From positions 224,001-288,000 of the forward strand of contig CAVWVQ010000001.1 in the NCBI GenBank assembly GCA_963758525.1: a DNA stretch of 64,000 nucleotides, given 5' to 3'. The stretch is from an uncultured Phycisphaerales bacterium. GTDB taxonomy: Bacteria; Planctomycetota; Phycisphaerae; Tepidisphaerales; Tepidisphaeraceae. Shown here piece by piece: positions 5,388 to 22,256 of the stretch (the stretch's first letter is position 1; each line of letters begins with the position of its first letter). A model generated the notes under the pieces. It worked only from the letters and a program-made list of their open reading frames with translations. It searched no databases and had not been told where the DNA came from. A program made the translations under genes and the position numbers.

Positions 5388-5726
5388 TCACCCGGCTCTG
5401 CGCTGGTTCATGACTAGTCGCAACCCTTCCGCCACCATTTGGGACCGCTTGAGTTTGTGCCGTTTCGCGAACGAGTCCGCCTCCTTGAGGAGGGTGCGTT
5501 CGATGCTGACGGACATCACCTTCGCGCCGGCGCCGACGGTGGGGCGTCCGCGCACCTTCCGCTGGAAGCGCTTCCATATCTTGCGTTCCGCGGCATTGAG
5601 GGGACGGGACTCCGAAAGCGGAACTTCTCCGCGCTCAAATATCGCCAGCTCCGCAGCTTTCTCGGCCGGGGAAAGTGCCAGGAATTTTTCCACCGCATCC
5701 GGCTCGCGCCGCTTTGCCTTTTTCAT
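5388..5726 (-). CDS. antitoxin, C-terminal RHH/CopG DNA-binding domain
   Basis: RGRP..G..VMSVSIERTLLKEADSFAKRHKLKRSQMVAEGL; GAAAGG RBS; directly downstream of toxin-like ORF. Confidence 0.7.
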   Translation of the reverse strand: MKKAKRREPDAVEKFLALSPAEKAAELAIFERGEVPLSESRPLNAAERKIWKRFQRKVRGRPTVGAGAKVMSVSIERTLLKEADSFAKRHKLKRSQMVAEGLRLVMNQRRAG

Positions 5727-5749
5727 AAGAACGCCTTTCTTCGTTTGCA

Positions 5750-5998
5750 TCATCGCCGCCGCCGGCCGGTCATTGGCATCGCGTGAATGATGTAGTACAC
5801 CCCGTCGCGATCGATCACGTATGCCACCTGGACCCATCGATCGCCGACGCCACGGCCGATGACTTGCCATTTGTCATCCCTGACGCGCCGGGGATACGGG
5901 CGCGCGCCGCCCGCACGACGCGCTCCGCCTCCCAGACCGAACGCCGTGCCTGGCCGCATGTTCAAATTCCAGTCGTTCCAGCGGAATTCCGCTTTCAT
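5750..5998 (-). CDS. BrnT/RelE-fold toxin-like protein (probable internal compensating frameshifts)
   Basis: EFRWNDWNL..HAARHGV, QVIGRG..RWVQVAY..IIHAMP; paralogue of 6096-6359. Confidence 0.6.
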   Translation of the reverse strand: MKAEFRWNDWNLNMRPGTAFGLGGGARRAGGARPYPRRVRDDKWQVIGRGVGDRWVQVAYVIDRDGVYYIIHAMPMTGRRRR

Positions 5999-6095
5999 CT
6001 GATTTAATTATGGAGTTAATCCGCGTCGATGCAAACTTATTCCGACGGAAACTATTATTCTTGCGTCCACTCCGATTTTCGCATATATAATAATC

Positions 6096-6359
6096 GTGCG
6101 GCAAGCGGATGACTTCCGGTGGAACGATGCGAACTTGGAGCATGCGACGAAGCACGGCTGCACGATCGCTGAGATCGAGCATCTGCTGCTGAATATTCCG
6201 CACGGATTTCCGCGCAGGATTGATCGCCACAAACGGCTGGTCATAGGACGCGGGCAGGGCGGACGACTCATCAGGGTGATCTACCTGCTCGATCCGCCGC
6301 CCGATGCTGCTTACTACGTCCTCCACGCCATGCCGCTGACATCGCGGCGCAGGCGGTGA
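6096..6359 (+). CDS. BrnT/RelE-fold toxin-like protein
   Basis: FRWNDANLEHATKHG..EIE..LVIGRG..RLIRVIY..VLHAMP. Confidence 0.7.
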   Translation: MRQADDFRWNDANLEHATKHGCTIAEIEHLLLNIPHGFPRRIDRHKRLVIGRGQGGRLIRVIYLLDPPPDAAYYVLHAMPLTSRRRR

Positions 6360-6394
6360 GGATCAACACCCGGCAATGCCGGGGGAAAGGCCAC

Positions 6395-6742
6395 ATGGCT
6401 CGCAAAACTGAAAAGGAACCAGCGACAGGCCGTGACTTCGAAGCCCTGCCGCGCGCCCAACGGGAGCGGATCATGGCGGAGCTTGACGCGGCCTCGACAG
6501 AGGAGCTGCTGGCCCGCTCCAAGCCGCTCACTCGCTCGCAAGCCGCCGCCGAGCGACGTCTGTGCGATGCGGTGAACGATCGCCGGGGACGCGGACGCCC
6601 AAAAGTCGGCAAGGGATCAAAACTTGTGGCTGTCACGCTTGAACAAGGTCTGCTGGAGGAAGTCGACCGTTTCGCCAAGCGGAAGAAGATGAAGCGTTCA
6701 GAGATGATTGCCAGCGGACTGAGACTCCTGATGGCTTCATAG
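6395..6742 (+). CDS. antitoxin, C-terminal RHH/CopG DNA-binding domain
   Basis: GRGRPKVGKGSKLVAVTLEQGLLEEVDRFAKRKKMKRSEMIASGL; GGAAAGG RBS. Confidence 0.7.
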   Translation: MARKTEKEPATGRDFEALPRAQRERIMAELDAASTEELLARSKPLTRSQAAAERRLCDAVNDRRGRGRPKVGKGSKLVAVTLEQGLLEEVDRFAKRKKMKRSEMIASGLRLLMAS

Positions 6743-6854: not shown

Positions 6855-6882
6855 ACTTAACATAACATGGATTATCGGACGT
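6855..6882 (-). other. dif: dif site (XerC/XerD), prophage left junction
   Basis: Minus strand reads ACGTCCGATAA-TCCATG-TTATGTTAAGT: 11-6-11 layout with a near-canonical XerD arm (E. coli TTATGTTAAAT). Confidence 0.9.
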
Positions 6883-7444
6883 GCAGAAGGGCGGCCAGAG
6901 AGGCCTATAACCGGCGGACACCGTTGATAGGTGCCCGCCAGCTAGAAGCCCACGGACTCCGGCCTGATGATAAGAGCCGGGCCGTGGAGAGCCCAAGTGT
7001 ACGTCCGAATATGCCCCGAGGCAAGAAATCATCATATCACCATTGACTGACTGCTAGCGGCTTCTAACCCGCTGCGCCAGATACCACCGGTGGGCTTCTA
7101 CTCCACCAACGATACCACCTATTGAACCAAACCCCGGCCCGACGTCAAGTGCCCTGCCCAGCAAAAATTAATCTTTTTTCGTCCCCAGCGCCGATTTGAG
7201 AGCGTGCCCGCCACAAAACCATTCAACCTCGACGACGCCTACAAACTCCAAAACATCTGGCGCGGCATGCGCGTCCTATGGCTCCCAATCACATTCGCTT
7301 TTTTCGTCGGCATGGGGATAACCATCCTCAAGGCACTTTTCACGCGACGCCCTCCAAGACGCCGACGATAATTCTCGGATTACAACCCACCACCCCTTGA
7401 CAGCGATGCAATCGACCTGTAACGCGCCGCAGGCCTGCAGGCAG

Positions 7445-8482
7445 TCACCACAATTTTGCCCCCTTGCTGGCCAGCACCAACCGCCACGCCCGCAACCCCA
7501 CCAGAAACCCCAACCCCAACGCGCTCGACTCCCCATACAAATGCAGCGCGCCCTCCAACCCCGCCAGCTGCGACGACCACGGCGACAACTCCACCGCAGC
7601 GCGCGAGAGGCGCGGAGCCACTCCTCCCCCGGCCGAACCCCACGGCGCGATCGGCCAAGACGCCACGTCGTCCGCCACCACCGCCCCGCCCACGAACCGG
7701 TTATCGGACGCTCGACCACCCGCCGAATACATCCCGTTCAGGATGTTGGTTCCCCAACCCTCGCAATCATTTCCGGTTATCAAAACATTGCTCTCGCCCA
7801 TGATTTCAATAGCGGTCTTGGCCCACAACGACACGCCCGCATCCGGCCCGGTCTGCAATAACACATTATTGCTTATCGTAATGTTGCTGCCGAACCCCAC
7901 CCACTCGGACCCGTCCCAATATCCGCCCGTCGCGCACGAAATCCCGATGTGCGAATCAACCCCGGCCCCGTCAACATGCGGCAACCAAGAGGACATCGAA
8001 TTACCGTCGACCAAAAGATGCGTCATACCCTTTTGTAGCTCAATCCCGATCCGCGTCGCATGCGTGATCACGTTCCCTTGCACCGTCAGCCCGTCACAAG
8101 CGGCCGACAGATGCACCGGCTCGTAAACCGCATCAAACGTGTTGCCCACGATCCGGCCACCGTCCCCCGGGTAGCCATAAATACCGCTACCACTCACCCC
8201 CGAAAACGTGCAACCAACGATCGACCAGTCACGCGCCCCCGCCCCTATAAAGATTGCGTCCCCATCAATGCCACTGAAGCTCGACCCCTCCACCACCACC
8301 CCGACCGCCCCATCCGCAATCACGACCTGCACACCTGGTCCGGTCACACCCCGCAACGAATCGCCCGACCCCAGCCGCACAACCGACCCACACGCACCCG
8401 AGGCCCACAACAGCAGAAACACGCAACACCGCCGCTGAGTCACACCCAGGTCAGTCACCCCAATTCCAAGCAATCCACGCAT
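7445..8482 (-). CDS. right-handed beta-helix protein fused to a C-terminal minor-coat-like anchor
   Basis: Signal-like N-terminus, repeated GN-x-I/F beta-helix rungs (IVGNTF, VQGNVI, VDGNSM, ISNNVL, ITGNDC); last 35 aa are 22/35 identical to ORF 15560-15697. Confidence 0.72.
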   Translation of the reverse strand: MRGLLGIGVTDLGVTQRRCCVFLLLWASGACGSVVRLGSGDSLRGVTGPGVQVVIADGAVGVVVEGSSFSGIDGDAIFIGAGARDWSIVGCTFSGVSGSGIYGYPGDGGRIVGNTFDAVYEPVHLSAACDGLTVQGNVITHATRIGIELQKGMTHLLVDGNSMSSWLPHVDGAGVDSHIGISCATGGYWDGSEWVGFGSNITISNNVLLQTGPDAGVSLWAKTAIEIMGESNVLITGNDCEGWGTNILNGMYSAGGRASDNRFVGGAVVADDVASWPIAPWGSAGGGVAPRLSRAAVELSPWSSQLAGLEGALHLYGESSALGLGFLVGLRAWRLVLASKGAKLW

Positions 8483-8499
8483 TTCTCGTCGCACTCTTT

Positions 8500-8689
8500 T
8501 CCCTCCCTGACACGGCGACCCCCCAATGACCCCATCAAACCGTCCAGCAGCTGCATGAAAGCGCCGCACGTCCCCGCCCCACAGAAGATCGGGCCCACGA
8601 ACGACCGCGAACCCCGCCGCCTCAAACCCCCGATCCATCAGGCCAATGCCCGGAAACAACGAAAGCACGACGCCGGCACACTCACACAT
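8500..8689 (-). pseudogene. N-terminal fragment of a C5 cytosine DNA methyltransferase
   Basis: Motif I LSLFPGIG and motif IV DGVIGGSPCQ present; motifs VI (ENV), VIII and X absent. Confidence 0.7.
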
Positions 8690-8861
8690 CACGCACCACC
8701 TTCCCGGAGGGTCACACCACTCCACAAACAACACCAGCGGAAACACCCACAACCGATGCCACCGTGACACGCCCGGCCGAAACTCCAACCGCCACGCGAC
8801 GCCACACGCTCGACAAAAGCGCCCCATCACGCACCACCTTTCTCTATTACTTGCCGACACC

Positions 8862-9038
8862 TCATCCTGCGTACTCCTCATGCTCCCGGATCAAACGACG
8901 GGCAGACTCCTCGATCACTTCCCGCACCGAAGCGCCCCCGCCCAACTCGCGTCGCACGTCACCGACCATCCGCGCCCACGCCTCGACCAGCAAAGTAAAG
9001 ATCTCTCCCACCTCGCACACACACTTGTCACCTGCCAT
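8862..9038 (-). CDS. small phage hypothetical protein (58 aa, MAGDKCVCEV...)
   Basis: Translated by hand; GAAAGGA RBS; directly downstream of rep. Confidence 0.5.
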   Translation of the reverse strand: MAGDKCVCEVGEIFTLLVEAWARMVGDVRRELGGGASVREVIEESARRLIREHEEYAG

Positions 9039-9052
9039 AGCGCACGTCCTTT

Positions 9053-10080
9053 CTAAATCGGCAGCCGATCGCAGTGACGCACAGGAGCCGGAGCCGGCTC
9101 ATCTGGCAGAAGCTTGCGATCGCCGTCACTCATCCTCGAATGCCCCCTTGCAAGCAGATTCTGGAGAAACATTTCCGCCCAGGCGTCACCCTGTTCTCTC
9201 TTATGCCACTCATGAACCATCGCCAGACGCCGACTTACTGTTCTCTCCAACCATCGCTGCATCGCCTCAAGCTCCTCCACCTCCTTCGGGTAGACCTTCA
9301 CCGCCGCCACGCCGAAGCCACCCCCGGATCGTCTCCCAAAACGGAGCCCGCCGGCGGCGCTCGACATGCAACGCGCGATCCTGATAGAAGTCGATCGACC
9401 CAGCCACCAACTCCCCAATCCGCCGAACCAACTCAGCGCCGGTGTACACGCCAAGCAGCTTGTCCCACACCGCGTCGGCATGAGCCTTAAAAAACCGTGC
9501 CTCATACCTCACCGCGTTAATCTCGCCATCCGATTCCGCCGCCTTGTCATACACGCACACCACCCGCCCGCCTTCACGCTCACCGAAATAAATCGTGTTC
9601 CCCTGCCGCCCCCCCTTGCCATCCCCCTCCTGGTGATGGCGGTGGCGACCCGGCCCAAACAATCGCGGCTCTGCATACCGCTCCCACAAGTCCGCCACCT
9701 CAATCACGCGCTCGAAGTCATCGAACGCACAATCCACCCGCGTCGCCTTGACCCCATGCACCCCACGCAGCCGCAACAGAAACCCCGCCATCGTCTCCGC
9801 GTCCAGCTGCGCAAGCCTGGCCGGTCACGTTCAGACAGACATCCGGCCTCGAGAACTCATCAGGGCCGCCATCCTCACACGGCGAGAAATTCAGCGTCAC
9901 ACCCGCCGTAAAGGCGTAGTGGCACCGATACCCCCGCACAACGCCGAACCGTTCCTCATGCGGCCACCCGAACACCTCTTCCACGATGTGCAGCAACGCC
10001 CCAATCTCCGTTGCCGGCGTCACAAACGTCAGCCAATCCAAACGAAGGACAGAACGACGTACACCACTTGGCGCATCCAT
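9053..10080 (-). CDS. rolling-circle replication initiator, Rep_trans family (split by 2 frameshifts)
   Basis: LRLDWLTFV, TRVDCAFDD, TIYFGEREGG..CVYDKAAE, VRYEARF across ORFs 9718-10080, 9267-9791 and 9053-9505. Confidence 0.85.
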
Positions 10081-10102
10081 GCTTACTCCGACTTGTCAAT
10101 CT

Positions 10103-10128
10103 GGACCCCCTGTTAGAGGGTGGGGTCC
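10103..10128 (-). other. putative double-strand origin / nick hairpin
   Basis: Minus strand GGACCCC-ACCCTCTAACAG-GGGGTCC; loop resembles the pT181-family nick motif CTCT^AATAG; lies just upstream of rep. Confidence 0.6.
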
Positions 10129-10299
10129 CCACAGACCACCACCCGCCCCGCCCCACAACGACAACGCCTACTCTCACAACAGCGCCCGCCGTCGACATCC
10201 ACCGCCAACCGAATGCGTCCACCGAAGACGATCACGACGACCCCGCCGCCCGGCAACGTCACCAACTCGCGAACGCACTCGAACCGAGAGACATCAAAC

Positions 10300-10740
10300 C
10301 ACGCCTCAGAGTTTTCATTTTCCCGCCCGCTCGAGCCGGCCCGAGCTCCGCCAGCCGGTCCCCGCCTTTGCTCAGAAACGCATTTACACGACGTGCGCAT
10401 ATGTCCACCTCGTAAAGTGTCAGATCTGATTCAATCGCAGAGCAGGGGGCGGCCCCCCTGCAACCCCCGGAAGGCGGCTCCGCCTGAAGGAAGCCGGCAA
10501 CAGCACCGGCCACGCCGGCAGCAAGCCCACCACTCCCGCAACAGTGCTGCCGTCATGTCCGGTGCAGATGCCGGCAGAAAGTGAGCGCTGCGCACAAGGA
10601 CGCTGCGCGGCCAATCTTTTTCCACCGCTCGCTGGGACGGAAGCGAGCGGCGGAAAAAAAATGTGCGGGGGGATGTTCCTGCCCGCACTCTCACGATGCC
10701 GCCGCGCTTCGCTTACCACCCGGCCCGGCCGGAAAGGATC
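10300..10740. other. phage intergenic region with multiple hairpins (candidate packaging signal / single-strand origin)
   Basis: Inverted repeats such as GCAGGGGG..CCCCCTGC (~10442-10460) and TTTTTTCC..CGCTCGCT/AGCGAGCG..GGAAAAAA (~10617-10660); no credible ORF. Confidence 0.55.
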
Positions 10741-10744
10741 CACC

Positions 10745-11155
10745 ATGGCACGCCCCACCGAACTGATCGAGATAGACGGAGAAATCGAACACTTACGCCG
10801 ACGCATCAACGATCTCACGCAATCACTCGCCGTCACAGACGCAACGGCGGACCTCGCGCGAAAGGAACTCGCACGGCTCAACGCGTACATCGGCGGAGTG
10901 CACGGCGAACACGGCCGCGGTATCGGAGCGTTACAGCAGACTTGCGCGGACCTCATCAAGAGCCTCGACGCGGTCGCAACCGAAACACAAAAGCGGCTCG
11001 ACGAGATCCGCGCCAACCTCGACGAGCTCGACGACATCGTAGAGAGCCACCTCAAGGTCACGCAGAGACTCGACGCCCGCCAAAACCAAGCACACGACTG
11101 GCTAACAGCGTTAGAAGCTCGCATAGCGCAACTCGAGGCAGACGACAACCCCTGA
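10745..11155 (+). CDS. coiled-coil phage protein (only antisense gene of the prophage)
   Basis: GAAAGGA RBS, 136 aa with heptad periodicity. Confidence 0.7.
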   Translation: MARPTELIEIDGEIEHLRRRINDLTQSLAVTDATADLARKELARLNAYIGGVHGEHGRGIGALQQTCADLIKSLDAVATETQKRLDEIRANLDELDDIVESHLKVTQRLDARQNQAHDWLTALEARIAQLEADDNP

Positions 11156-11196
11156 TGGATCAACACGCCGGCGGCGCACCCGCGCCGCCGGCACAG

Positions 11197-11433
11197 TCAC
11201 ACGTCCCCCGCCGCCGAGTCACAGCCTGGCGAGTCACACATCCCCACCACCGGCGACGGCCCACCCCCGTCCCGCACCGCACGCCACACCCGCTGCGCAT
11301 CCGCCCCGTGCGCGAACTCCACGCGCCCGCCCACGAAGGAAATCACCAAGCGGTCCGAACCCTCCCACCGCACCGACGCCACGTAGCGCAGCACAATCAC
11401 CGTACGACCCAAGACCAACCGTTCGTCCGTCAC
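11197..11433 (-). CDS. small phage hypothetical protein
   Basis: GTG start overlapping the secretin stop (GTGA); 78 aa. Confidence 0.5.
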   Translation of the reverse strand: MTDERLVLGRTVIVLRYVASVRWEGSDRLVISFVGGRVEFAHGADAQRVWRAVRDGGGPSPVVGMCDSPGCDSAAGDV

Positions 11434-12902
11434 CGTCCACCTGCCTTTGCTACCGCTATCGCCGCCTCTGCCGCCGACAACCGATCCTGATCGGCCCGGT
11501 ACACGGCTTCCCACTCACGGCGAATCGCCAACACGTCACGCCCGACCTCCTCGACCGATCTATCCACCGGAGCCGGCCCCCGCCCAGGCACGTCTACCGG
11601 CCCCACCGGCTTGAGCGGCACGTCCGGCGACCCGCTCGGCCTAGGGGCCTCGCTCCCGCCGTCCGTCCGCTCCACCGGCCCGCCTGTACCCCGGCCCACG
11701 CGCGTCACGCTGGCCCACAGCTGGACGACCCGGCCGGAGCTCTCCGCGTCCGCCAACGATTGCAGCCCCAGCGTATGACTCAGCGTCCACGTGCGGCGCT
11801 CCACCTCGCCCACCAGCGCCGTCCCACCAACGTCGATCGGGGCCGAGGCGGCGAACTGGAAACCGGTCGTCGTCGGAACCCCCTGATCAGACAGCGCCAG
11901 CAACGACGTGCTGGAATAATCCACCGTCAACGCAGCACGATCCGTCCCGGCCGGACGAACAGTCAACGTCACGTCGAGGCCCACCCGATAAGGAACCAAC
12001 GTGCTTTGCGTTTGCGTCCCCTGATCATTCGTCGCCGACTGCGGCAACAGGTACGTCGTCCCATCCGACAACTTCCCCGGCACGCCGCCCGCCAGCACCA
12101 TCAGCGGCGACACCAGCGCCCGCACGTGATTGTTCTCATGGCTCGCCACAATCATGGCCTGCAACATCGCGCTTGCCACCGTCGTGACTCCACCGGTCGC
12201 GACATGGCCCAACACGCCCTGGAGCGTCACAGTCGCCGAACCGTCCCACCCCACCTTTTGCAGAAACTCGCGCGACACGTCGAACGCGTAGACGTGAATC
12301 AGCCACGCATCCGCCGGCGCCGCATCAAGCTGCGCCAACACATCGCCTATCTTCTGGTCGATTTCCACGCTGTCACCCACGACTACGATTCCGTCCTCGG
12401 TCACCGAAAGCCGCCCGGCGTCCGACAGATAGACCCGCAACAGCGCATCCAACTTATCCGGCGCGACCCGAGCACACCGACCAACGAGAACCGCGCGATC
12501 CTGCGGCCGCAATGAGCCGATAAACCACAACGACCCCAGGCGAGTCACATCCGCCCCAACGCGCCTCGCGACCGCCGCCAGCACGTCGCCCACCGGCACG
12601 CCCTGCACCCGAATATTCACTGTTGACTTATCCAACTTGGCCTCACAGATCGCCGACACGCCATCATCCACCGCCAGCCGCCCGAGGAACTGCTCGAGCG
12701 TTATGCCCTCCGCTGACAACGAAACGCGCGCCCCCGTGTCCCGTGTCTGCAGCGCCGACGCCACCGGCAGCGCTGCCGAGTACGCCGCCCGGAACTCCCG
12801 CTCCGCCCGCAACTCCGGCGCTTCTTGGCACCCAATCGCGACCGAGAGCCACATGCCGCACCACCCCGCGCCGATCGAACGTAGCAACGCCTTCAACATC
12901 AT
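11430..12902 (-). CDS. secretin (pIV-like), probable lipoprotein
   Basis: Lipobox-like VAIGC, N0 domain (VSLSAEGITLEQFL..VNIRVQGVPVGDVL), N3 domain, secretin beta domain (SPLMVLAGG..VGLDVTLTVRP). Confidence 0.8.
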   Translation of the reverse strand: MMLKALLRSIGAGWCGMWLSVAIGCQEAPELRAEREFRAAYSAALPVASALQTRDTGARVSLSAEGITLEQFLGRLAVDDGVSAICEAKLDKSTVNIRVQGVPVGDVLAAVARRVGADVTRLGSLWFIGSLRPQDRAVLVGRCARVAPDKLDALLRVYLSDAGRLSVTEDGIVVVGDSVEIDQKIGDVLAQLDAAPADAWLIHVYAFDVSREFLQKVGWDGSATVTLQGVLGHVATGGVTTVASAMLQAMIVASHENNHVRALVSPLMVLAGGVPGKLSDGTTYLLPQSATNDQGTQTQSTLVPYRVGLDVTLTVRPAGTDRAALTVDYSSTSLLALSDQGVPTTTGFQFAASAPIDVGGTALVGEVERRTWTLSHTLGLQSLADAESSGRVVQLWASVTRVGRGTGGPVERTDGGSEAPRPSGSPDVPLKPVGPVDVPGRGPAPVDRSVEEVGRDVLAIRREWEAVYRADQDRLSAAEAAIAVAKAGGR

Positions 12903-14100
12903 TCACCACCTCAAGCCGCCAACCCAACGCGGCACCACTCTCCACAGTTTCGCCCACACGCAACACGGCCCCATCCTCAAACACGACCTCTTCCCGACGC
13001 ACGAGCACCAGGCGAACAACCCCCACGCGATCGTCGACCAACGCCGGCCGACCAGCCGCTGCCCCCCCCCCCACACCACCTCCACCCCGATATCGCCCCC
13101 CGCCGAGCTCAGTCACACGATGCCCACCCACGCCCTGGTCGGTCACCCCCGCAGGCCCAGCGCCTTGTGACGCCGGCAACGCGGCCCGCATATTCTTCGC
13201 AGCAAACCCCCCGACCCCCGACACGATGCCGTGCACGAGGCACCCGCCGCCGCCACAGACGAAAAACAACGGCAACCACAAAAGCCAAGACCGCATCAAC
13301 AACGCATAAAAGTGCTTCGACACGAACCAATTGATCAGGCCCGGCCAAGACCGCCGCTCATACTCCCTCTTGCGCGGCCCGCCCGCCTGCCCGCCCCCCG
13401 ACTCCGGCTTGGAGTAGCTGTCGTAGAGCTCAAAGTACCGAGGCAGAAGGTAGTGAAACTTTTCGCGCTCGCGGATGAAGCGCGCATTAACTTCGCGCCC
13501 CAGTGTCTCCCAAACCGCCGCAAGATATGTCCCGGTAAGTTTTGCGCGTAATTCATACCAATCTCCGAGCTCGATGTGAAAAAACGGGTCGGGGCGCTCA
13601 TCACTATGAACGAGCTCACGACGGAGCCCGCTCTCATTCTTGATAACGCGCGCCACCTTCATCTCGTTCTGACTTAGAAATTCTATAGTCGCCCCCTGAT
13701 GCCGAATCGTCCCCAACCATTTCTGCCACTGCGCCAGATATGACATCTTCGCCCCGACCCCCGCATACTCATGGATTTCGTCAATGGCGATATGGGTATC
13801 GGCCAACGATTGCCCCTTGAAGAAATCCCACGGGCCGCGCTGCCCCAGCCGCCACGCCGCCAACTCCTCCTCCGGGAAACGATGCAGCCGCGCCTCATAC
13901 TCATCAGCATCGCCATTCTTATTCTTCGACCACTGCGCCGCCAAGACCGCCAACGTGCGCGGCTCATACGGAAAGTTGCTCCAATGATGCAAGTTCGTTT
14001 CCGGCAGCAACTCCTCCGAGAGGAATTTCGCACACCGCAGCAAACTCTTGCCGCTGCCGGCCCGCCCCACTGTGAATTGAACCGACGTCCTGACGGCCAT
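12664..14100 (-). CDS. Zot-like assembly ATPase (pI)
   Basis: N-terminal Walker A GRAGSGKS, Walker B IAIDEIH, RHQG..LSQ motif, central TM helix. Confidence 0.9.
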   Translation of the reverse strand: MAVRTSVQFTVGRAGSGKSLLRCAKFLSEELLPETNLHHWSNFPYEPRTLAVLAAQWSKNKNGDADEYEARLHRFPEEELAAWRLGQRGPWDFFKGQSLADTHIAIDEIHEYAGVGAKMSYLAQWQKWLGTIRHQGATIEFLSQNEMKVARVIKNESGLRRELVHSDERPDPFFHIELGDWYELRAKLTGTYLAAVWETLGREVNARFIREREKFHYLLPRYFELYDSYSKPESGGGQAGGPRKREYERRSWPGLINWFVSKHFYALLMRSWLLWLPLFFVCGGGGCLVHGIVSGVGGFAAKNMRAALPASQGAGPAGVTDQGVGGHRVTELGGGRYRGGGGVGGGAAAGRPALVDDRVGVVRLVLVRREEVVFEDGAVLRVGETVESGAALGWRLEVVNDVEGVATFDRRGVVRHVALGRDWVPRSAGVAGGAGVPGGVLGSAAGGVGAADTGHGGARFVVSGGHNARAVPRAAGGG

Positions 14101-14101
14101 A

Positions 14102-14200
14102 CTACTCCCAATCCTGCAACGCAACCCACAACAGCGCGGCCATCCCCCACCCGCAAAGCGCCAGCTTCACCAACAAGTCGACCACCACATCGGACCGCAT
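14102..14200 (-). CDS. 32-aa single-TM phage protein
   Basis: Hand-translated MRSDVVVDLLVKLALCGWGMAALLWVALQDWE; AGGGAG RBS; fills the pVI-pI gap. Confidence 0.5.
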   Translation of the reverse strand: MRSDVVVDLLVKLALCGWGMAALLWVALQDWE

Positions 14201-14226
14201 CGCGACTCCCTGGACAGTCACGCCCC

Positions 14227-14490
14227 TCAGAACAGCCGCACGACCAGCTTGACGCAAAAGTACACAATGAACGACACCAGAAACCCCGCGAGGAGCTCAC
14301 AAAGCGTATCCAGTGGAAACCACAGATTGAGCAGCGAGCAGTACGTCGCAAGCGTCGCCAGCGTTGCGTTAGTCGGGATCGTCGGCAGCGGCGCGACCGC
14401 CAGTTGCAGCAACGTGTACCCGAGCTCGCACGCCCAATTCTCGAGGTACCCCAAGAAGTTCAGCAGCGCCTGCAACACGTAATAAATCAT
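14227..14490 (-). CDS. minor coat protein pVI-like
   Basis: 87 aa, hydrophobic, LNLWFPLDT motif, located between the pIII-like gene and Zot. Confidence 0.75.
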   Translation of the reverse strand: MIYYVLQALLNFLGYLENWACELGYTLLQLAVAPLPTIPTNATLATLATYCSLLNLWFPLDTLCELLAGFLVSFIVYFCVKLVVRLF

Positions 14491-14493
14491 GGG

Positions 14494-15521
14494 TCACCAG
14501 TCCTTCAACGTCTTCCACAACAGCCAACAAAACGACATGACCAAAAAGAATGTCGCCACCCCACGAACCGTGCCCTGCGCCCCCGACACAGCCGAACCAT
14601 AAGGCGTACCGTTCAGCGTGAACGACCCCGACTGCGGGTTAACGTCGATGCGGATTTCCGACCCGCCAAGCACACTCGGCAGATGCCAATCGACCGGCTC
14701 CAACGTCATCTGTTCAGAGAGATTCGCCGAACTGAACTGCGCGGCGAATGGAAACTTCGTGGTCAGCAACGTCTCAATCTCCCCCATGCAACTGGGCGCC
14801 GTCGTCGCGGGTTGCGTTGTCGGAGAAGGGCTGGTCGTCGTCGACGTGTCAGACGCCCCGGTAGTCGGGGCCAGCCCCGTAATCGTGATCTGCGCGTACC
14901 CCGGCGGCACCGAGTGCGACGCCCACGCATTTTGCCCTCCATTCAACGCGGTGAACAACGGCGAGAATGCCATCGTCACGTAGTAATTCGTCGCCCCGCC
15001 ACCCGACGGATACGACACGGGATCTTCCCCAAAATCCCCATTCAGCTTCGTGGCCGACGAATACGGCTCGCGCCAGTAGAACGTGTTGACATCGGTCCCC
15101 TGATCCCCAGCGTACACCTGGACCCCACCAATCCAGACCTGATACCCCGTCGCGTCGAGCTCGATCTTAAAATCCACCTCGAGCCGATCCCCGTTCGGAA
15201 CGTACGCCGACCCGCTCCAGCGCCACAAATCCAAAGCAAACGTCCCCTCATAGACGCCATTACTCCCGCTAGACCCCAACCCGCACTGGACCGTCAGCAA
15301 GTTTTGAAATGAAGGGAACCCCGAATTAACTTGGCCCGGCGGCAAGAACACGTCCGGGAACCCCGCCCGTGGGTATTGCGTCAGCGCCCCGACAGGTCCC
15401 CGTAAAAGAGGCTGCTCCCGTATTGGTACGCTACCGTCGCTTCCGCCTGAAAATCCACCGGATTGCCAGCCGCCCCACCCGCCACGACCGACAAGGCCAG
15501 CGCCACGAAGGCAACCCGCAT
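14494..15521 (-). CDS. attachment protein pIII-like (frameshifted near 15350-15390)
   Basis: Signal peptide MRVAFVALALSVVAGGAAG, beta-rich domain, Thr/Pro linker, C-terminal TM anchor, upstream of pVI. Confidence 0.7.
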
Positions 15522-15559
15522 CGCACCCAGCTCAGTCACACCACCGCCCATCGCACGCC

Positions 15560-15697
15560 TCAAAAGAATTTGGACATCTTGGAGAGCATCACCAAGCGCC
15601 ACAGCTGCAACCCGACGAGGAAACCGACGCCGAGCGCTATCGCCTCACCATATAGATTGATGGCACCCATCAACTGGCTGAACTGGTCATCCGTCAT
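15560..15697 (-). CDS. small minor coat-like protein (pVII/pIX-like), 45 aa
   Basis: Acidic N-terminus, one TM helix, basic C-terminus (MTDDQFSQLMGAINLYGEAIALGVGFLVGLQLWRLVMLSKMSKFF). Confidence 0.65.
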   Translation of the reverse strand: MTDDQFSQLMGAINLYGEAIALGVGFLVGLQLWRLVMLSKMSKFF

Positions 15698-15830
15698 ACG
15701 CTTCCGACCCCGAGCACTCATGCTCAACCTTGCAATGCCAGTACGCGGCCGACATGGACTTGACAATGTCACCACACATCGGACACCGCAACGTCACACC
15801 AGTACCGTAAGACACGGCGACCTCCAATCA

Positions 15831-15872
15831 CAAAAGGGGAGCGGAGCGCCCGCAACGCAGGCGCCCCGCTCA
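15831..15872 (-). terminator. intrinsic terminator after major coat gene
   Basis: GAGCGGGGCGCC..GGCGCTCCGCTC hairpin followed by CCCTTTT; same position as the central terminator of Ff phages. Confidence 0.6.
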
Positions 15873-15887
15873 GGCGGAAAACCGGGA

Positions 15888-16130
15888 TCAGCCACCCTTG
15901 ACGCCGCGACGCGCCCACTTCCAGAACGCGGCGAAGATCACCAGCGCGATGAACACGCCGAACAAGACACCGAGAATGGTGCCCATGTTCGCCGCAGCCG
16001 CGGTGGTCAAGGAGCCAGCGTCAACGCCGAGATCAAACGGCGTGGAATCCGCGCGGGCCGTGGCCGACAGACCCACAAGAGCAGTGCACATCAACAGTGC
16101 ACCGACGATACGAGAACGGAACCGAGACAT
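15888..16130 (-). CDS. major coat protein (pVIII-like)
   Basis: GAGGAG RBS; signal peptide ending ARA; 53-aa mature protein with acidic N-terminus, TM helix and basic WKWARRGVKGG tail. Confidence 0.85.
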   Translation of the reverse strand: MSRFRSRIVGALLMCTALVGLSATARADSTPFDLGVDAGSLTTAAAANMGTILGVLFGVFIALVIFAAFWKWARRGVKGG

Positions 16131-16201
16131 AGAAACTCCTCATACATGACGACCACACCGGCCGTCCCTCTTACCGAGGCTTGACCCGCCAAACACCCTG
16201 G

Positions 16202-17379
16202 TCAGTCACCACCCACCATCCGACCTATCAACGCTTCCGCTTTTCCACGACACTCCACGCAGCGCGAGTTCCCCGCAATCACAGGAGCCCCACATTCCCA
16301 ACACGTAGGCGACTCCACCTCCTCCGCCTCACTCACAGCCCCCCCCGGCGAATTGTCCCCCAACTCGGAGCCCATCGACTCCAACGACTCTCCACCCGAC
16401 ACCTCCCCATACACATGATGCTCGACCGCCCCCACCACCGCGCCTTCGTTCGAGTCAATCACCATCCCCCCATCTTCGCCCGCCATCTGCCGCACGCACC
16501 GCCGACAAAAACCGCCGCCGTCACCATCGCGCTCAGCACGACTCAACCGAACCCCGCACCCGTCACACCGCCACGCATCAACCCCCGGCCCCTCCTCCAC
16601 CGCAGGCTCCGTCCCGCCTCCCACCGACCGCTTAGACCAAATCCAAAACGCGCCGAGGACCAAGAGCACAAGAACACACCGAAGATCAAACCCAGGTGAC
16701 CCCCCATCGCCGACGCCACGCTCGCCACCTTAGCCCCCACCGAACCCGAACCCGCCTTCCCCAAACCCGCCGAATCAAAGGTATAAGTGCCCGCCCCATC
16801 CCCCCCCCCACCGCCACCAGCCCCGCCACCCGAACCGCCACCACCCGAGCCACCACCGCCCGATCCGCCACCTGAACCACCGCCAGCACCGAAACCACTC
16901 CCAGGCGACGACCACAGGACCCCCGAGCCCGAAACCGTCCCATCCGTCCCCAGCGAAACGACATCGTCCACACCCGACGTCAGCACATCCGCCCCACTCA
17001 CCGCGTCCGCTTCTGCCGCAGCTAACGCCGACGAGTCACCCGCGAACCCACCGTCAAACACCACCCCACTCTCTGAATCGAAGCCCACACTCTCACGGGT
17101 CTCACCGGCGGAAACCGTATCGTAATAAAACGGCGAACCATCCACACTCACCAACTCAGTCACCCAAAACCCCTCATCATTAACGCCACCAACCAGGTTC
17201 GGAACCGAATCATCAGAAAAACTAATCGTCCGAGACTGCGCCCGACACACCCCCGGCAACACTAGAAATGCCAGCAGCCAAACCACAAGCACGGGTAGCG
17301 CACGACCAGTTGACCGCACCACACCACCCGCACCACCCACAGAACCAAGGTTACCGCAACAATCACGATCCGAGCACAT
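16202..17379 (-). CDS. passenger domain + Gly linker + major-coat paralogue + Cys-rich tail (1-nt frameshift at ~16670)
   Basis: Signal peptide (VCRA-Q), acidic beta domain, GGGS-type linker, coat-like helix 17/32 identical to pVIII, then CxxC x4. Confidence 0.65.
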
Positions 17380-17561
17380 ACACACCACCTTTCGACCGCG
17401 CACACTGACGACACGACCAAGCCTCGCATCGCGCCACCCCACACACACACGCGACCCACGACACGAGGCACCATGCGACTCCACCAAAACCAGACCACCA
17501 CGACTCACAGTCGCCCCAACCCAACAACCGCAGCTATCGCACAACGCCACCAACGAACACA

Positions 17562-17720
17562 TCACCCACCCCCCACAGCCCGAGCCGCATGCCTGGCCAG
17601 CGCCCCAAACACATTCAGCGCCACCTGAATCGACACCATCAAACCCACCACAAGCGCCAGCGTCGCCACGAGCTCACCCAACACTTCCAACGGCACAAAA
17701 CCCGGATCAGGAATAGTCAT
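17562..17720 (-). CDS. 52-aa single-TM phage protein (minor coat-like)
   Basis: Hand-translated MTIPDPGFVPLEVLGELVATLALVVGLMVSIQVALNVFGALARHAARAVGGG; TGATG coupling at both ends. Confidence 0.6.
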   Translation of the reverse strand: MTIPDPGFVPLEVLGELVATLALVVGLMVSIQVALNVFGALARHAARAVGGG

Positions 17721-17878
17721 CACTTGCCCTTAGAAAACGCCTTATCCACCCAACCCCAACCCCGCGCCGCCTGAATCAGCAGGTGGATCGTCAGGCCGCA
17801 CCCGAATCCCACCCCCACCCCGATCCGCAGGAGCTCCCACGCCGTCGCGACCTCGATCGTTGGCATTGTCGTAGGCAT
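17720..17878 (-). CDS. 52-aa single-TM phage protein (minor coat-like)
   Basis: Hand-translated MPTTMPTIEVATAWELLRIGVGVGFGCGLTIHLLIQAARGWGWVDKAFSKGK; GAAAGG RBS. Confidence 0.6.
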   Translation of the reverse strand: MPTTMPTIEVATAWELLRIGVGVGFGCGLTIHLLIQAARGWGWVDKAFSKGK

Positions 17879-18050
17879 CGCGCCGAACCTTTCTCACCCC
17901 CAACAACAACCCCAAAACCGACGCGAGCATCATCGCCAACACGAACCGCCCGAACGCACAGGACGCACACGCCAGCACCATGACAACTCCCAAAACACCC
18001 AGCGGGGTCGCTAGACCCCGCCGAGCGGACAGAAACACACCGACCAGCAA

Positions 18051-18431
18051 CTACCTCGCAGCCTGGGCAGTCACAGGCCCAGCACCATTTCCGGGAGCCT
18101 TCACCGCCGCAGGCATGCCGCGCTTGCGGATGCCCATCGCCGTCAGGTCACATTCCGCCAACAGCGCTTCCGGCTCAAAAGACACCACACGCAAAACCGT
18201 CGTGCGGCCGTACGTCTCCTCCTCCACGTCCACGTTGACCACGATCGGACCACCGGCAGCGATCGTCCCCGCAAAATCGGTCGCGATCGCCTTCGTCGTC
18301 CGATACGTCTTGGCCTCATAGCCAAAGGCGCCCGTCTTCTTGGTCACACTGCCCATGAGCGCCCACAACTCGCTGTAGTCACGCCCGTCATCTGCCACAC
18401 GCGGGTTCGCACCCGTAACAATCAGACGCAT
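18051..18431 (-). CDS. ssDNA-binding protein (pV / Pf1 gene-5-like)
   Basis: 126 aa beta-rich OB-like core (GAFGYEAKTY..GPIVVNV..YGRTT) with Ala/Pro-rich tail; first gene of the structural operon. Confidence 0.65.
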   Translation of the reverse strand: MRLIVTGANPRVADDGRDYSELWALMGSVTKKTGAFGYEAKTYRTTKAIATDFAGTIAAGGPIVVNVDVEEETYGRTTVLRVVSFEPEALLAECDLTAMGIRKRGMPAAVKAPGNGAGPVTAQAAR

Positions 18432-18583
18432 ACCGGCCTCTCTTTCTATTGCGAGCCTATCACTCGCCACCACACTCCAGACCGACAGCGCACGAGAACG
18501 CCCCGCCCGCTGGTCAGAGTTAAAAAGCGCAAAAATTGAAATAAACGTTAATGCCGCAAGAATCGGCAAAAACCCCTCTTTTT

Positions 18584-18611
18584 CAATTGCATAACATGGA
18601 TTATCGGACGT
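18584..18611 (-). other. prophage right junction, dif-like site with degenerate XerD arm
   Basis: Minus strand ACGTCCGATAA-TCCATG-TTATGCAATTG. Confidence 0.85.
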
Positions 18612-19952: not shown

Positions 19953-21283
19953 TTAGTCGGTAAGCCGGTCCATGAGAAATCCCCTGATCTGGTCAATGCC
20001 GATCCGCTGCTGGCGCATCGAGTCACGTTCCCGGAGAGTGACTGTCTGATCTTCCGCAGTCTGGCCGTCCACAGTGATGCAAAAGGGCGTGCCGGCCTCG
20101 TCCTGACGGCGGTATCGCCGCCCCACCGCGCCCTTCTCATCGTAGAAAACGGGCCAGTGCTTTTGCAGATCGTGATAGATCGCCATCGCCCGCTCCGGCA
20201 TTCCCTCTTTTTTCACCAGCGGGAAGATCGCCGCTTTCATCGGCGCGAGGCGCGGCTTGAATCGCAGCACGGTTCGCATCTCCCCTTCGACCTGCTCCTC
20301 GGCATAGGCCTCGCACAAAAACGCCAGCGTCGCGCGCGTGGCCCCCGCCGCCGGCTCGATGACATGCGGAACGAATCGCTCCTTGGTTTCGTCGTCGAAG
20401 TAACTGAGGTCCTTGCCGCTGAATTTGATGTGCTGCTGCAGGTCGTAGTCGCCGCGGTGAGCGATGCCCTCCAGTTCGCCCCATCCCCAGGGGAATTTGT
20501 ATTCGATGTCGCTGGTGCCGCTGGAATAAAACGCCAGCTCGTTCTTTTCGTGCTCGCGGAGGCGCAGGTTTTCGCCGGCCAATCCCAATTGCTGATACCA
20601 GGCGAAACGCCGGTCGCGCCACTGGCGATAGGTGTCCTGGCTGTCCTGCGGCTTGCAGAAATATTCGATCTCCATCAACTCGAATTCGCGCGAGCGGAAG
20701 ATGAACTGCTTGGGCGTGATCTCGTTGCGGAAGGCCTTGCCGATCTGCGCGATGCCGAACGGCAGTTTCACGCGCGTCGAATCGCAGACGTTTCTGAAGT
20801 TGACGAACATCCCCTGCGCCGTCTCGGGCGCAGATAGACCGTCGCGGCATTCTCTTCCACCGGGCCGACAAACGTTTTGAACATCAAGTTGAACTTGCGG
20901 GCGTCGGTTAGCTGGCAGTCCGCGAACTGCCCGGGCGGCTTCGAGGGTTTTCGCGGGCAGGCGCTCTCGGCGATCTGATCGGCACGAAACCGCGCCTGGC
21001 AAGTCTTGCAATCCACCAGCGGATCGGTGAACGCCGCTTCGTGCCCGCTGGCCTGCCAGACGGTGCGGTTCATCAGAATAGCTGAGTCGAGGCCGACGAC
21101 ATCGTCGCGGGTGGTGACGTTGTCATGCCACCATGCGTTCTTGACGTTGCGCAGCAATTCGACGCCCAGGGGGCCGTAATCCCAGGTTCCGGTGAGTCCG
21201 CCGTAGATTTCGGAGCCGGGGTAGACAAAGCCGCGGCGTTTGCAAAGGGAGACGAGTTTGTCCAGCGTTCCAGCTTCAGCCAT
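19953..21283 (-). CDS. glyQS: glycine--tRNA ligase, homodimeric type (frameshift ~20830)
   Basis: [50 protein letters not shown]. Confidence 0.95.
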
Positions 21284-21608
21284 GATGAACGACCTCCGAC
21301 CCCGCGACAGCCGCGGTTGCCGCTCCGCAGCGCCTCGCGTGGCAAAATCCCGGGAGGACACCCTTCATTCCTCCCCTGGTGCGCCCGGGGAGGATTGAGG
21401 TCGGGACAGACGGTGCGGATCGCAAGATATGGCTCCGTTAGCCGTTTAGAGCCGGTTTCATTACCCCCTCTCCCGGATTGCCGGCAGAGGGAGTAGGTCG
21501 CTCGAAGTTCTGAAACGTCCTCTTGGCCCGCAGCAGGCCCAAAGGCGTATTTCACGATTTCAGCGCGCTCCGTGCGCGTCGCGGCTAAACAGGGATCTGA
21601 AGCTGCCT

Positions 21609-22034: not shown

Positions 22035-22256
22035 GGGTTTCAGGGGGTCGAGAGGGTTCAGGGTGTCAGGGTTCAGGGTGTCAGGGTTCAGGAGTGTCAC
22101 GTATTTCCTGCATCGTGAGGTCGAGAACGTTCAGAGTTTCCGGTGCATTGAGTCCAGGGAGAGCACCCGTCTTTCCTGAACCCTGACACCCTGACACCCT
22201 GAACCCTGACACCCTGAACCCTGACACCCTGAACCCTCTCGATGCCCTGAACCCTC
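22035..22256. repeat. inverted pair of short tandem repeat tracts (CAGGGTT/CAGGGTGT units)
   Basis: Tract at ~22035-22090 and its reverse complement at ~22176-22256. Confidence 0.85.

Follow-up and report, generated by a model that had tools for sequence, protein, structure and literature searches.

The closest described counterparts of the element reported here are TLCphi of Vibrio cholerae and the gonococcal genetic island. Neither relies on an integrase, a full dif is restored on one side of each, and the passages that treat their attP sites describe an XerC arm and overlap homologous to dif next to a divergent XerD arm (PMC5357621, PMC9226527). GGI1 differs in its six outermost XerD bases, and the passage concerned names the fifth innermost base as the one that matters most (PMC9226527). 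The filamentous phages VGJphi and CTXphi, with Rep_trans, a pV-like gene, coat genes and pI, likewise insert at dif without an integrase. Partial dif-like attP sites are also present in PM2/dif-type double jelly-roll (DJR) prophages (PMC12715192) and in enterogokushoviruses, whose sites vary in the XerD arm (PMC7062461). However, these belong to other virus groups with proteobacterial hosts, and the DJR elements carry a homologue of XafT, which has been linked to DUF3653 (PMC6744903).

For planctomycetes, genome-wide dif prediction failed in the one genome included (Kono 2011). Inoviruses had been predicted in the phylum: the work of Roux et al. (2019) lists five Planctomycetes inovirus species in its supplements and inovirus-like sequences from Pirellula, Planctomyces and Brocadiales. 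A text search of those supplements returned no Phycisphaerae or Tepidisphaeraceae, the att types given are DR, tRNA and integrase, and XerC is absent from the searched text and supplements (PMC6813254). An earlier note on this DNA, which knew of no characterised example in Planctomycetota, therefore overstated the novelty of the host. In the literature searched, we found no report of dif use by planctomycete inoviruses. Two other candidates for comparison were set aside: Phage-ZRK32 of Poriferisphaera, described in the relevant part of its report as hexagonal, 21.9 kb long and extrachromosomal (PMC10945688), and the Lentisphaerae inovirus of PMC11361711, reported outside the chromosome.

The analysis supports an 11.7-kb inovirus-type (filamentous) prophage without an integrase, lying in the predicted dif of a planctomycete (Table 1). 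All positions refer to the window, the whole 64,000-nucleotide stretch of DNA that was analysed. That an inovirus reached dif by way of Xer is, in our judgement, highly probable.

Table 1. Features of the element and its junctions, in window coordinates
Feature	Position	Strand	Evidence or remark
Full dif site (predicted), presumably restored at left junction	6855..6882	-	sole full site in genome; 28-mer identical at empty G001 site
Parts of left site: XerC-type arm, overlap, XerD-type arm	6882-6872 (XerC-type), 6865-6855 (XerD-type)	-	arm names follow resemblance to published dif sites
Right junction: host XerC-type arm, same overlap, phage XerD-type arm	18584..18611	-	host DNA upstream agrees with G001
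AT-richer intergenic stretch with hairpins; inverted partial XerC-arm look-alike at 7001-7011	6883..7200		sequence
55-aa predicted membrane protein with host paralogue	7204..7371	+	40% identity to G000:C3:4325847
Beta-helix domain and second copy of small coat protein, one open frame	7445..8482	-	PF13229 E 5e-12
C5 DNA methyltransferase gene fragment, about 60 codons, in frame upstream of beta-helix gene	8500..8689	-	
58-aa ORF after rep	8862..9038	-	no family at useful E
Rep_trans rolling-circle initiator, split over three frames (breaks near 9815 and 9315)	9053..10080	-	PF02486
C-run/TAACA/G-run palindrome at 5' end of rep	10102..10131	-	sequence
135-aa coiled-coil protein, opposite strand	10748..11155	+	generic coiled-coil matches only
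79-aa ORF, coupled to secretin stop	11197..11436	-	no family match
pIV-like secretin	11430..12902	-	phrog_1012 E 1.1e-6; start overlaps pI tail, likewise in relative L059
pI (Zot-like) morphogenesis ATPase, Walker A and B intact	12664..14100	-	phrog_197 E 1.6e-7
pVI-like minor coat protein	14227..14490	-	clade profile E 3e-13
pIII-like adsorption protein; signal-like start in other frame, break near 15390	14494..15521	-	C-terminal match, clade pIII profile E 6e-4
45-aa small coat protein, clade-wide family following pVIII	15560..15697	-	clade profile E 8e-9
46-aa Cys/His-rich ORF	15687..15827	-	
Terminator-like hairpin, strong (15 pairs, 12 G-C), directly 3' of major coat gene	15839..15871	-	
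Major coat protein pVIII with signal peptide	15888..16130	-	clade profile E 8e-12
pVIII fusion	16202..17320	-	signal-like stretch, passenger of about 120 aa, linker rich in Gly, second copy of pVIII and tail rich in Cys
53-aa short pVIII-like membrane protein	17562..17723	-	clade pVIII profile E 0.043, weak
52-aa small coat-like protein	17720..17878	-	clade profile E 0.003
Likely pV-type single-stranded DNA binding protein, first gene inside right junction	18051..18431	-	Atlas features

Insertion at the predicted dif site

The longest exact match between the ends of the element is 22 nt (6861-6882 and 18590-18611), as long as the att duplication first described. The repeat holds the XerC arm and the spacer (the 6-bp overlap) given in that description, and in addition five inner XerD bases of the dif-like site. 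On the minus strand, 6882-6855 reads as a complete 11-6-11 site, while the right-hand XerD-type arm retains its five innermost bases and has five of its six outer bases altered relative to the left site, in keeping with the intact left and degenerate right arms that had been proposed. Repeats of 22 nt at a distance of 10-13.5 kb are not rare as such, with 82 pairs across the genome; the present one matters because it coincides with the sole dif-like site, not because of its length. Within six mismatches of the dif-like motif, the 6.47-Mb genome contains the two junction copies only. Excision is predicted to yield a circle of 11,729 nt that joins 18611, and not 18590 as formerly stated, to 6883. 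No 25-mer of the element was found elsewhere in the host genome, and its G+T strand skew is the genome maximum (0.64 vs at most 0.56 in windows off its contig region).

The site is, by comparison among genomes, the predicted dif of the host. The motif is present in 116 of 141 family genomes, as a single copy in 104, and a reversed-motif control gave 0 matches in the same set; the same neighbouring gene adjoins it in 8/14 family loci checked. KOPS-type (GGGNAGGG-type) motifs converge on the site (21/17 to its left vs 9/35 to its right, Fisher p 0.0014), whereas neither GC nor keto skew turns at dif. The order bioB-fabF-dif-glycosyltransferase is contiguous in G001, G010 and G018, and in G001, of the same genus, both flanks of the element adjoin across an empty dif with an identical 28-mer, the kind of empty site in a relative for which the earlier note had called. 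Host XerC and XerD score over the NCBIfam cut-offs, and FtsK-gamma is present. The element itself gave no Xer-like integrase match at E<1, in agreement with the earlier claim; insertion at a predicted dif with a dif-like attP, no recombinase of its own and a host with both XerC and XerD make it a probable IMEX.

The host, called planctomycete-like in the earlier note, is most likely a member of the Tepidisphaeraceae. Its genome (G000) is metagenome-assembled, 90.9% complete, 6.07% contaminated and indel-prone. Contig C6 was considered as a free form of the phage and rejected, being a duplicate of chromosomal DNA. Such an assembly, with its contamination, could in principle have joined foreign DNA to this host, or the locus could be a resident secretion system; we regard either as extremely improbable. 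The att duplication is exact and falls on the host's own dif, the flanks are contiguous in relatives, G001 speaks against a chimera at the junctions, and the host carries paralogues of two element genes, in one case with 69-76% DNA identity. Nor did the comparisons made group the locus with chromosomal secretion systems or show it as constitutive in relatives: tblastn gave no match between the phage secretin and any of the four secretins on the host chromosome, the fold modelled for pI is that of inovirus pI, and pI and the secretin were each found in only 2/141 family genomes.

Phage gene content

The gene order is att-SSB-coat-pI-pIV-rep-accessory-att, which puts the att site between the rep/accessory module and the SSB-coat operon, as had been noted. 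Unlike VGJphi and CTXphi, the element encodes its own secretin and has its attP between accessory genes and an SSB-like gene. A full inovirus gene set had been proposed; pI, the secretin, Rep_trans and the coat genes stand, while the SSB is only weakly identified and the pIII match is weak. The SSB candidate resembles (Atlas features 0.91) a cluster with 25% PF07459 CTX_RstB, which is a lead only, and its single-sequence fold model has a pLDDT of 37. For pI, PF05707 was detected in 39/52 family members, and the model (pLDDT 81.6) has its best fold matches in Inoviridae Zot and 2r2a. Secretin relatives are present at 43/58 pI loci.

The short single-TM structural proteins expected of an inovirus, including a major coat protein, are present. 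The pVIII, pVI, small coat and pIII genes were searched with profiles built from relatives (clade profiles in Table 1), and membrane segments and signal peptides of coat proteins were judged by eye. The pVIII family has 486 representatives, two of which match PHROG major coat profiles (E 1e-3 to 2e-3). The small coat protein family was found in 30/41 elements, and its member at 15560..15697 would be pVII- or pIX-like.

The Rep pieces match PF02486 with E 3e-18 (middle) and 0.067 (last), full-length relatives having 336-377 aa. The palindrome at the 5' end of rep, whose pattern recurs near the same place in 5/8 relatives checked, is judging from sequence the likely plus-strand origin, and the stretch 6883..7200 is a possible packaging or minus-strand origin region. 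The methyltransferase fragment matches PADLOC DruM2/MTase_II (E 4e-4 to 5e-3) and PHROG 363 (E 0.017). A sigma-70 promoter scan stayed at chance level.

That the prophage is complete, as first reported, is unproven because rep, pIII and the coat fusion are frameshifted. There are four frameshifts (two in rep, near 9315 and 9815; one in pIII, near 15390; one in the coat fusion, near 16670), where 1.5 would be expected at the host rate (P(4 or more) = 0.06, or 0.34 if the rate is doubled for homopolymer density), a number compatible with the indel rate of the assembly. Whatever the entry route, the element may be a decayed remnant that makes no virions, with real frameshifts in these genes and a methyltransferase fragment, a reading we hold to be possible rather than probable. 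Four breaks within about 10 kb, two in rep and one of these outside any homopolymer, point that way, as does the truncated methyltransferase gene. However, 21 of 123 conserved host genes, plus glyS, also appear frameshifted (not inspected singly), the element has twice the density of homopolymers of 5 or more, pI, secretin and pVIII were seen to be without in-frame stops, and the palindrome that resembles an origin is intact, as are both att sites.

Coat-gene copies fused to passenger domains

Neither coat fusions nor frameshifts figured in the earlier note. The open frame at 7445..8482 begins with a signal-like stretch (by eye), and its C-terminal 41 aa are 59% identical to the small coat protein (15563-15697, E 4e-14). 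Its beta-helix is 43-58% identical to 7 host genes, with 69-76% DNA identity to three, and on sequence comparison this passenger is host-derived. The pVIII fusion has a single frame break, near 16670 and within the pVIII copy; read through the break with X, it is 45% identical to pVIII over 42 aa (E 1e-11). Its passenger of about 120 aa had no usable Atlas match. Unrelated passengers on coat copies recur in five relatives; those seen outside this element include a LamG domain and unknown folds. The pVIII profile search gives no support for common fusions, because the 10 longer sequences inspected, from 150 listed of 486, included no passenger fusion, their extra length coming from mis-called starts, a tandem repeat or tails at the C-terminus.

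Two-gene phage-display vectors (type 88, pIX display) combine a wild-type coat gene with a second copy bearing a signal peptide, passenger and linker. The present arrangement is similar, with a plain coat gene beside a copy with signal, passenger and linker; it differs in being natural, with putative incorporation into the virion, and in the C-terminal tail and frame break of the pVIII fusion. Tentatively, the element may stand as type member for a PVC inovirus clade not described before, one that both switches att designs and practises natural phage display. As to display, extra coat copies with interchangeable passengers would be incorporated in the virion, where they would act as variable adhesins or decoys, the beta-helix here having been captured from exported proteins of the host. 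As to att designs, the clade would switch freely, with the same Xer system and without a known Xer activator, between XerD-degenerate, mirror-image XerC-degenerate and CTX-like hairpin sites, or an integrase at tRNA/tmRNA.

Route of integration

Starting from what is directly observed (the att duplication, a relative with an empty site, the genes of the element, xerC, xerD and ftsK in the host, and no XafT domain), we favour the following pathway as reasonably probable. The phage attP would be double-stranded, and host XerC and XerD would carry out the two strand exchanges in the manner of TLCphi and the gonococcal island. The circular form would carry an attP whose XerC arm and overlap are identical to dif and whose outer XerD arm is altered; the crossover would restore a full dif on the left and leave the altered site on the right. 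Host FtsK would most likely trigger XerD, because no known activator is on board: XafT/DUF3653 (PF12375) was not found in the host genome (90.9% complete, with the element fully covered), in which the element differs from TLCphi-type IMEX, and by eye no conserved att-adjacent gene stood out as an activator candidate in arm-degenerate relatives. Excision driven by FtsK would be slower because of the altered XerD arm. Should the four frameshifts be artefacts of assembly, Rep is expected to nick the palindrome that lies upstream of its gene, with the phage then leaving the cell by a channel made of its own pI and pIV. Unlike TLCphi and the gonococcal island, the element would be a filamentous phage in full rather than a satellite or a conjugative island, in a planctomycete host, and its pathway is putative. 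Of the XerD-first, FtsK-independent reaction that marks TLCphi-type IMEX, the involvement of XerD alone is predicted here.

At the two ends of the element the overlaps agree in 6/6 positions, and so they do in all 10 relatives with either arm-degenerate design, even though the overlap sequence itself differs between elements; this supports the two-step pathway because two-step exchange requires overlap identity. Identical overlaps are, however, also compatible with an XerC-only exchange resolved by replication. FtsK-driven entry is possibly inefficient, since five of six outer XerD bases differ vs four in GGI1, and the element may carry an unrecognised activator.

In the VGJphi route, XerC alone would exchange one strand pair on a dsDNA attP and replication would resolve the junction. 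The XerC arm, 11/11 identical to that of the host, beside an altered XerD arm would suit this route, as would the lack of XafT, and VGJphi is described in the passages concerned as a filamentous phage with one dsDNA attP. The same passages, however, define the VGJ attP by XerD-side overlap mismatches, of which there are none here or in the 10 arm-degenerate relatives, nine of them having lost the XerC arm instead; we consider this route unlikely. The CTXphi route, in which folding of the ssDNA genome would bring attP together with an inverted partner and XerC would irreversibly recombine the resulting hairpin, is very improbable. An inverted 9/11 XerC-arm look-alike (7001-7011) does form a stem with attP in the predicted lowest-energy fold, and Victivallales-clade relatives do have inverted pairs. 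But this partner lies on the XerC side, is mismatched at inner arm bases and lacks a matching XerD half, and a pair of inverted att sites, separated by about 90 nt and folding into a hairpin attP as in CTXphi, was not found. The best partner scores 15/22, matched by 14 of 200 shuffles (of this element's flanks only), while 8/10 hairpin-clade relatives score 16-19 at 32-70 nt and L059, with the same att design, has none (12/22). The CTXphi/VGJphi type initially assigned is thus not supported: full overlap identity and a degenerate XerD arm correspond to the TLCphi/GGI layout in the passages on those sites, and no hairpin partner scored above shuffle level.

Relatives and implications

Relatives were placed with a quick version of a pI tree. 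The clade includes XerD-degenerate, XerC-degenerate, hairpin and tRNA/tmRNA att designs, a mix for which we found no report in the literature searched. In nine relatives the XerD arm is intact and the XerC arm degenerate, a design resembled by the 17-bp "left-armed" PM2 site (PMC12715192). The pI query had no match in viral_contigs or among 50,697 phage records, and the 22-nt core had no exact match in viral_contigs. A looser dif pattern matched at least 120 viral stretches, and this pI family is absent from the 80 of them examined; the arm sequence is therefore not restricted to planctomycetes.

Insertion at dif is well known among inoviruses, their presence in planctomycetes had been predicted, and the present copy may be defective. 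Nevertheless, the element extends Xer-exploiting filamentous phages to Planctomycetota and Lentisphaerota, and the nine XerC-degenerate relatives, taken with the missing XafT, suggest an entry route outside the three Vibrio classes. If virions carry the coat fusions, these would parallel two-gene phage display in nature. Tools for integrating DNA into planctomycetes could be based on such an attP. Finally, the element exposes a dif consensus, open to test, for the Tepidisphaeraceae and for further planctomycetes, where earlier prediction had failed. As planctomycetes, to our knowledge, divide without FtsZ, this consensus makes the coupling of Xer and FtsK directly testable in them.

The Insertion Site

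The two ends of the element share an exact 22-nt repeat; excision would yield a circle of 11,729 nt. Length and spacing alone do not make such a repeat rare, as 82 pairs of 22-nt repeats at comparable spacing occur genome-wide. It is significant because it lies on the genome's sole dif-like site; no third match with six or fewer mismatches is found in the whole 6.47 Mb. Allowing one mismatch, a scan with the dif pattern gave matches in 116 of 141 family genomes (including the unpublished G004), in a single copy in 104 of these, while the reversed control gave 0. The site lies directly downstream of the same glycosyltransferase gene at 8 of the 14 family loci examined. A genome of the same genus (G001) carries the identical 28-mer between fabF and this gene, free of any insertion, and the same gene order is seen in two other genomes (G010 and G018); in a third (G002), about 2.8 kb of other DNA occupies the corresponding position.

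The host encodes XerC and XerD scoring over the NCBIfam cut-offs, together with an FtsK-gamma domain. The KOPS octamer converges on dif from both sides of the host contig C1 (21/17 vs 9/35, p 0.0014); no GC-skew turn was seen at dif. The TPR protein flanking the element has 692 relatives, and the taxon-named matches listed come from Tepidisphaeraceae (5/6) and Phycisphaerales (1/6), which makes a tepidisphaeracean planctomycete the most likely host. Prediction of dif failed in the single planctomycete tried by Kono et al. (2011; PMC3025954), and no later description of a planctomycete dif appeared among the papers listed in our literature search.

Across the family the arms of dif are conserved and the 6-bp overlap is highly variable, which could reflect escape from dif-targeting elements. 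Seven genomes (G057, G102, G113, G115-G117 and G007) have 3-5 dif-like matches each, which may represent plasmids, additional replicons or dif modules. The stretch between fabF and dif (5388-6742 of the window) holds two gene pairs resembling toxin-antitoxin systems, each with weak matches to DUF4258 and ribbon-helix-helix proteins; neither pair gave a tblastn match in the dif regions of four relatives checked.

Phage Genes and Intactness

The G+T strand skew of the element, 0.64, is the highest in the genome (3,205 windows). Its pI matches phrog_197, and the pI structure model (pLDDT 81.6) has inovirus pI and the N-terminal domain of Neisseria Zot as nearest folds; Pfam Zot is matched by 39 of 52 aligned pI relatives. 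The secretin matches the PHROG of M13 pIV and has no tblastn match to any of four host secretins. Profiles built from relatives identify pVIII, pVI and a 45-aa coat protein. A strong terminator lies 3' of pVIII, and in Ff phages a terminator likewise follows this gene. The SSB assignment is a lead from gene position and the Atlas. Rep belongs to the Rep_trans family, and its gene is preceded by an origin-like palindrome, as in five of eight relatives checked. No Xer-like gene was found in the element, and no DUF3653 in the genome. Both pI and the secretin occur in 2/141 family genomes; counting the host's own, strong pI matches were found in 7/401 class and 5/401 phylum genomes sampled. Within the clade, Rep_1, REP_ORF2-G2P and Rep_trans are exchanged next to the same morphogenesis module. 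Tandem arrays or double inovirus copies also occur (L146 with L310 in G154; L100; L064/L065), one array at dif having three att sites.

Four frame breaks interrupt the element: two in rep, one between the signal-like start and body of pIII, and one in a coat fusion. The assembly is indel-prone, since glyS (19953-21361) is split over two frames and an automated comparison of 123 conserved host genes (148 kb) with G001 found frame changes in 21 of them. At this rate 1.5 breaks would be expected in the element (P of four or more, 0.06); doubling the rate for its twofold homopolymer density raises P to 0.34. The two nearest pI relatives (76% and 81%) also have a shortened pI, and their contigs of 11.1 and 10.9 kb may be whole elements. 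On balance, we lean towards the element being intact. Elsewhere in the assembly, an 8.2-kb contig (C6) duplicates C3:52517-60748 (suf operon) at 99.9% identity, and a long inverted repeat of 7-8-nt units, a REP-like host repeat, lies at 22036-22254 between rpsT and the TPR gene.

Coordinates of att sites, coat fusions and related loci
Feature	Locus	Position	Strand	Remarks
Left att copy	Element	6861-6882	minus-strand reading	Full 11-6-11 site
Right att copy	Element	18590-18611	minus-strand reading	XerC-type arm, overlap and 5 inner XerD-type arm bases kept; 5/6 outer bases changed
Beta-helix + second small-coat copy	Element	ORF 8482-7445	minus	Single open frame
Passenger + Gly-rich linker + second pVIII copy + Cys-rich tail	Element	about 17320-16202	minus	
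Swapped Rep	L059; L053; L102	5704-7146; 1127-2440; 5472-6788		
Mirror-design prophages (n=9)	L155; L063; L084; L102; L148; L150; L146; L073; L147 with L309	8458/17919; 3827/20429; 14170/2586; 13113/4589; 14711/5450; 7023/16555; 4243/12765; 10848/2499; 7730 with 5900		
CTX-like inverted att pairs	L075; L082; L070; L092, L095-L098, L100, L103	25/122; 440/503; 3774/3908		Victivallales-containing clade
Viral contigs ending in dif	L157, L163, L164, L176, L178, L196, L207, L209, L224, L227			

Integration and att Designs

Xer-dependent elements are described (PMC5357621; PMC9226527; bioRxiv 2026.06.12.731946) as falling into a CTX class, whose attP is a hairpin from two inverted sites, a VGJ class, with a dsDNA site mismatched in the overlap, and TLC and the GGI, in which the XerC arm and the overlap are homologous and the XerD arm diverges. 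The element shares the TLC/GGI layout, so its assignment to the CTXphi/VGJphi type in the earlier note is not borne out. An inverted partial XerC arm (7001-7011) base-pairs in the predicted fold; the best two-arm inverted partner of attP scores 15/22, equalled in 14 of 200 shuffles. The full overlap homology argues for insertion by XerC/XerD through both strand exchanges. As no XafT was found, our best guess is that FtsK would activate recombination, as for the GGI. The altered XerD arm may protect against excision, a role reported for the GGI.

Among 19 pI-bearing loci with a full dif, the XerD-degenerate design recurs once (L059). Eight show the mirror design (overlap and XerD arm intact, XerC arm altered), four keep the XerC arm alone with a different overlap, and six have no second att site in the DNA examined, although one of these, L147, proved to be of mirror design on longer DNA. 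All ten arm-degenerate relatives share the overlap of the host at 6/6 positions. The loci that keep the XerC arm alone fall in a clade that includes Victivallales. Of 10 sites tested in this clade, 8 have an inverted partner with a score of 16-19/22 at a distance of 32-70 nt; overlaps of these CTX-like pairs are often 9-12 nt, and several come from gut metagenomes. Further relatives bear an integrase or have an end in tmRNA or tRNA-Gly. In a quick 42-row tree of pI, the various designs are interspersed. A full dif with these same arms also lies at the end of many viral contigs of 4-5.5 kb that do not belong to this pI family.

Coat-Gene Fusions

Two coat fusions, which the earlier note does not mention, add to the gene set. 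In the first, the beta-helix is 43-58% identical to seven host proteins, and the small-coat part is 59% identical to the element's own small coat protein (41 aa aligned, E 4e-14). In the second, the pVIII copy is 45% identical to pVIII over 42 aa (E 1e-11, frame break bridged with X), and the Cys-rich tail would be hard to fit into the filament lumen. A screen of 41 elements revealed unrelated passengers ahead of a pVIII-like end (L102, E 9e-4; L155, E 8e-5; L081, E 2e-3) or a small-coat end (L148, LamG, E 0.014; L073, E 0.0025), with L085 a weaker case; none of 777 host ORFs gave a match. No passenger fusion appeared among the 10 longer matches examined from a library-wide pVIII search. The coat-like domains of the fusions may be mere membrane anchors. 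Nothing on natural coat-gene duplicates appeared among the papers listed in a literature search. Extra passenger-free pVIII-like paralogues are present in L061, L064, L081, L084, L091 and L147, several with acidic C-terminal tails.

Relation to Known Elements

Planctomycete inoviruses had already been predicted: supplements 4 and 5 of Roux et al. (2019; PMC6813254) hold five Planctomycetes species, none from Phycisphaerae, and XerC is not mentioned in the parts of that paper searched. The host novelty suggested in the earlier note is therefore overstated. No planctomycete inovirus inserted at dif appeared among the papers listed from the literature open to search without subscription. Partial dif-like attP sites are known for DJR prophages and PM2 (PMC12715192) and for gokushoviruses (PMC7062461). 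At its core, the finding is a known kind of element in a new host phylum. It departs from that kind in its missing activator, in the range of att designs within the clade, and in the coat fusions.
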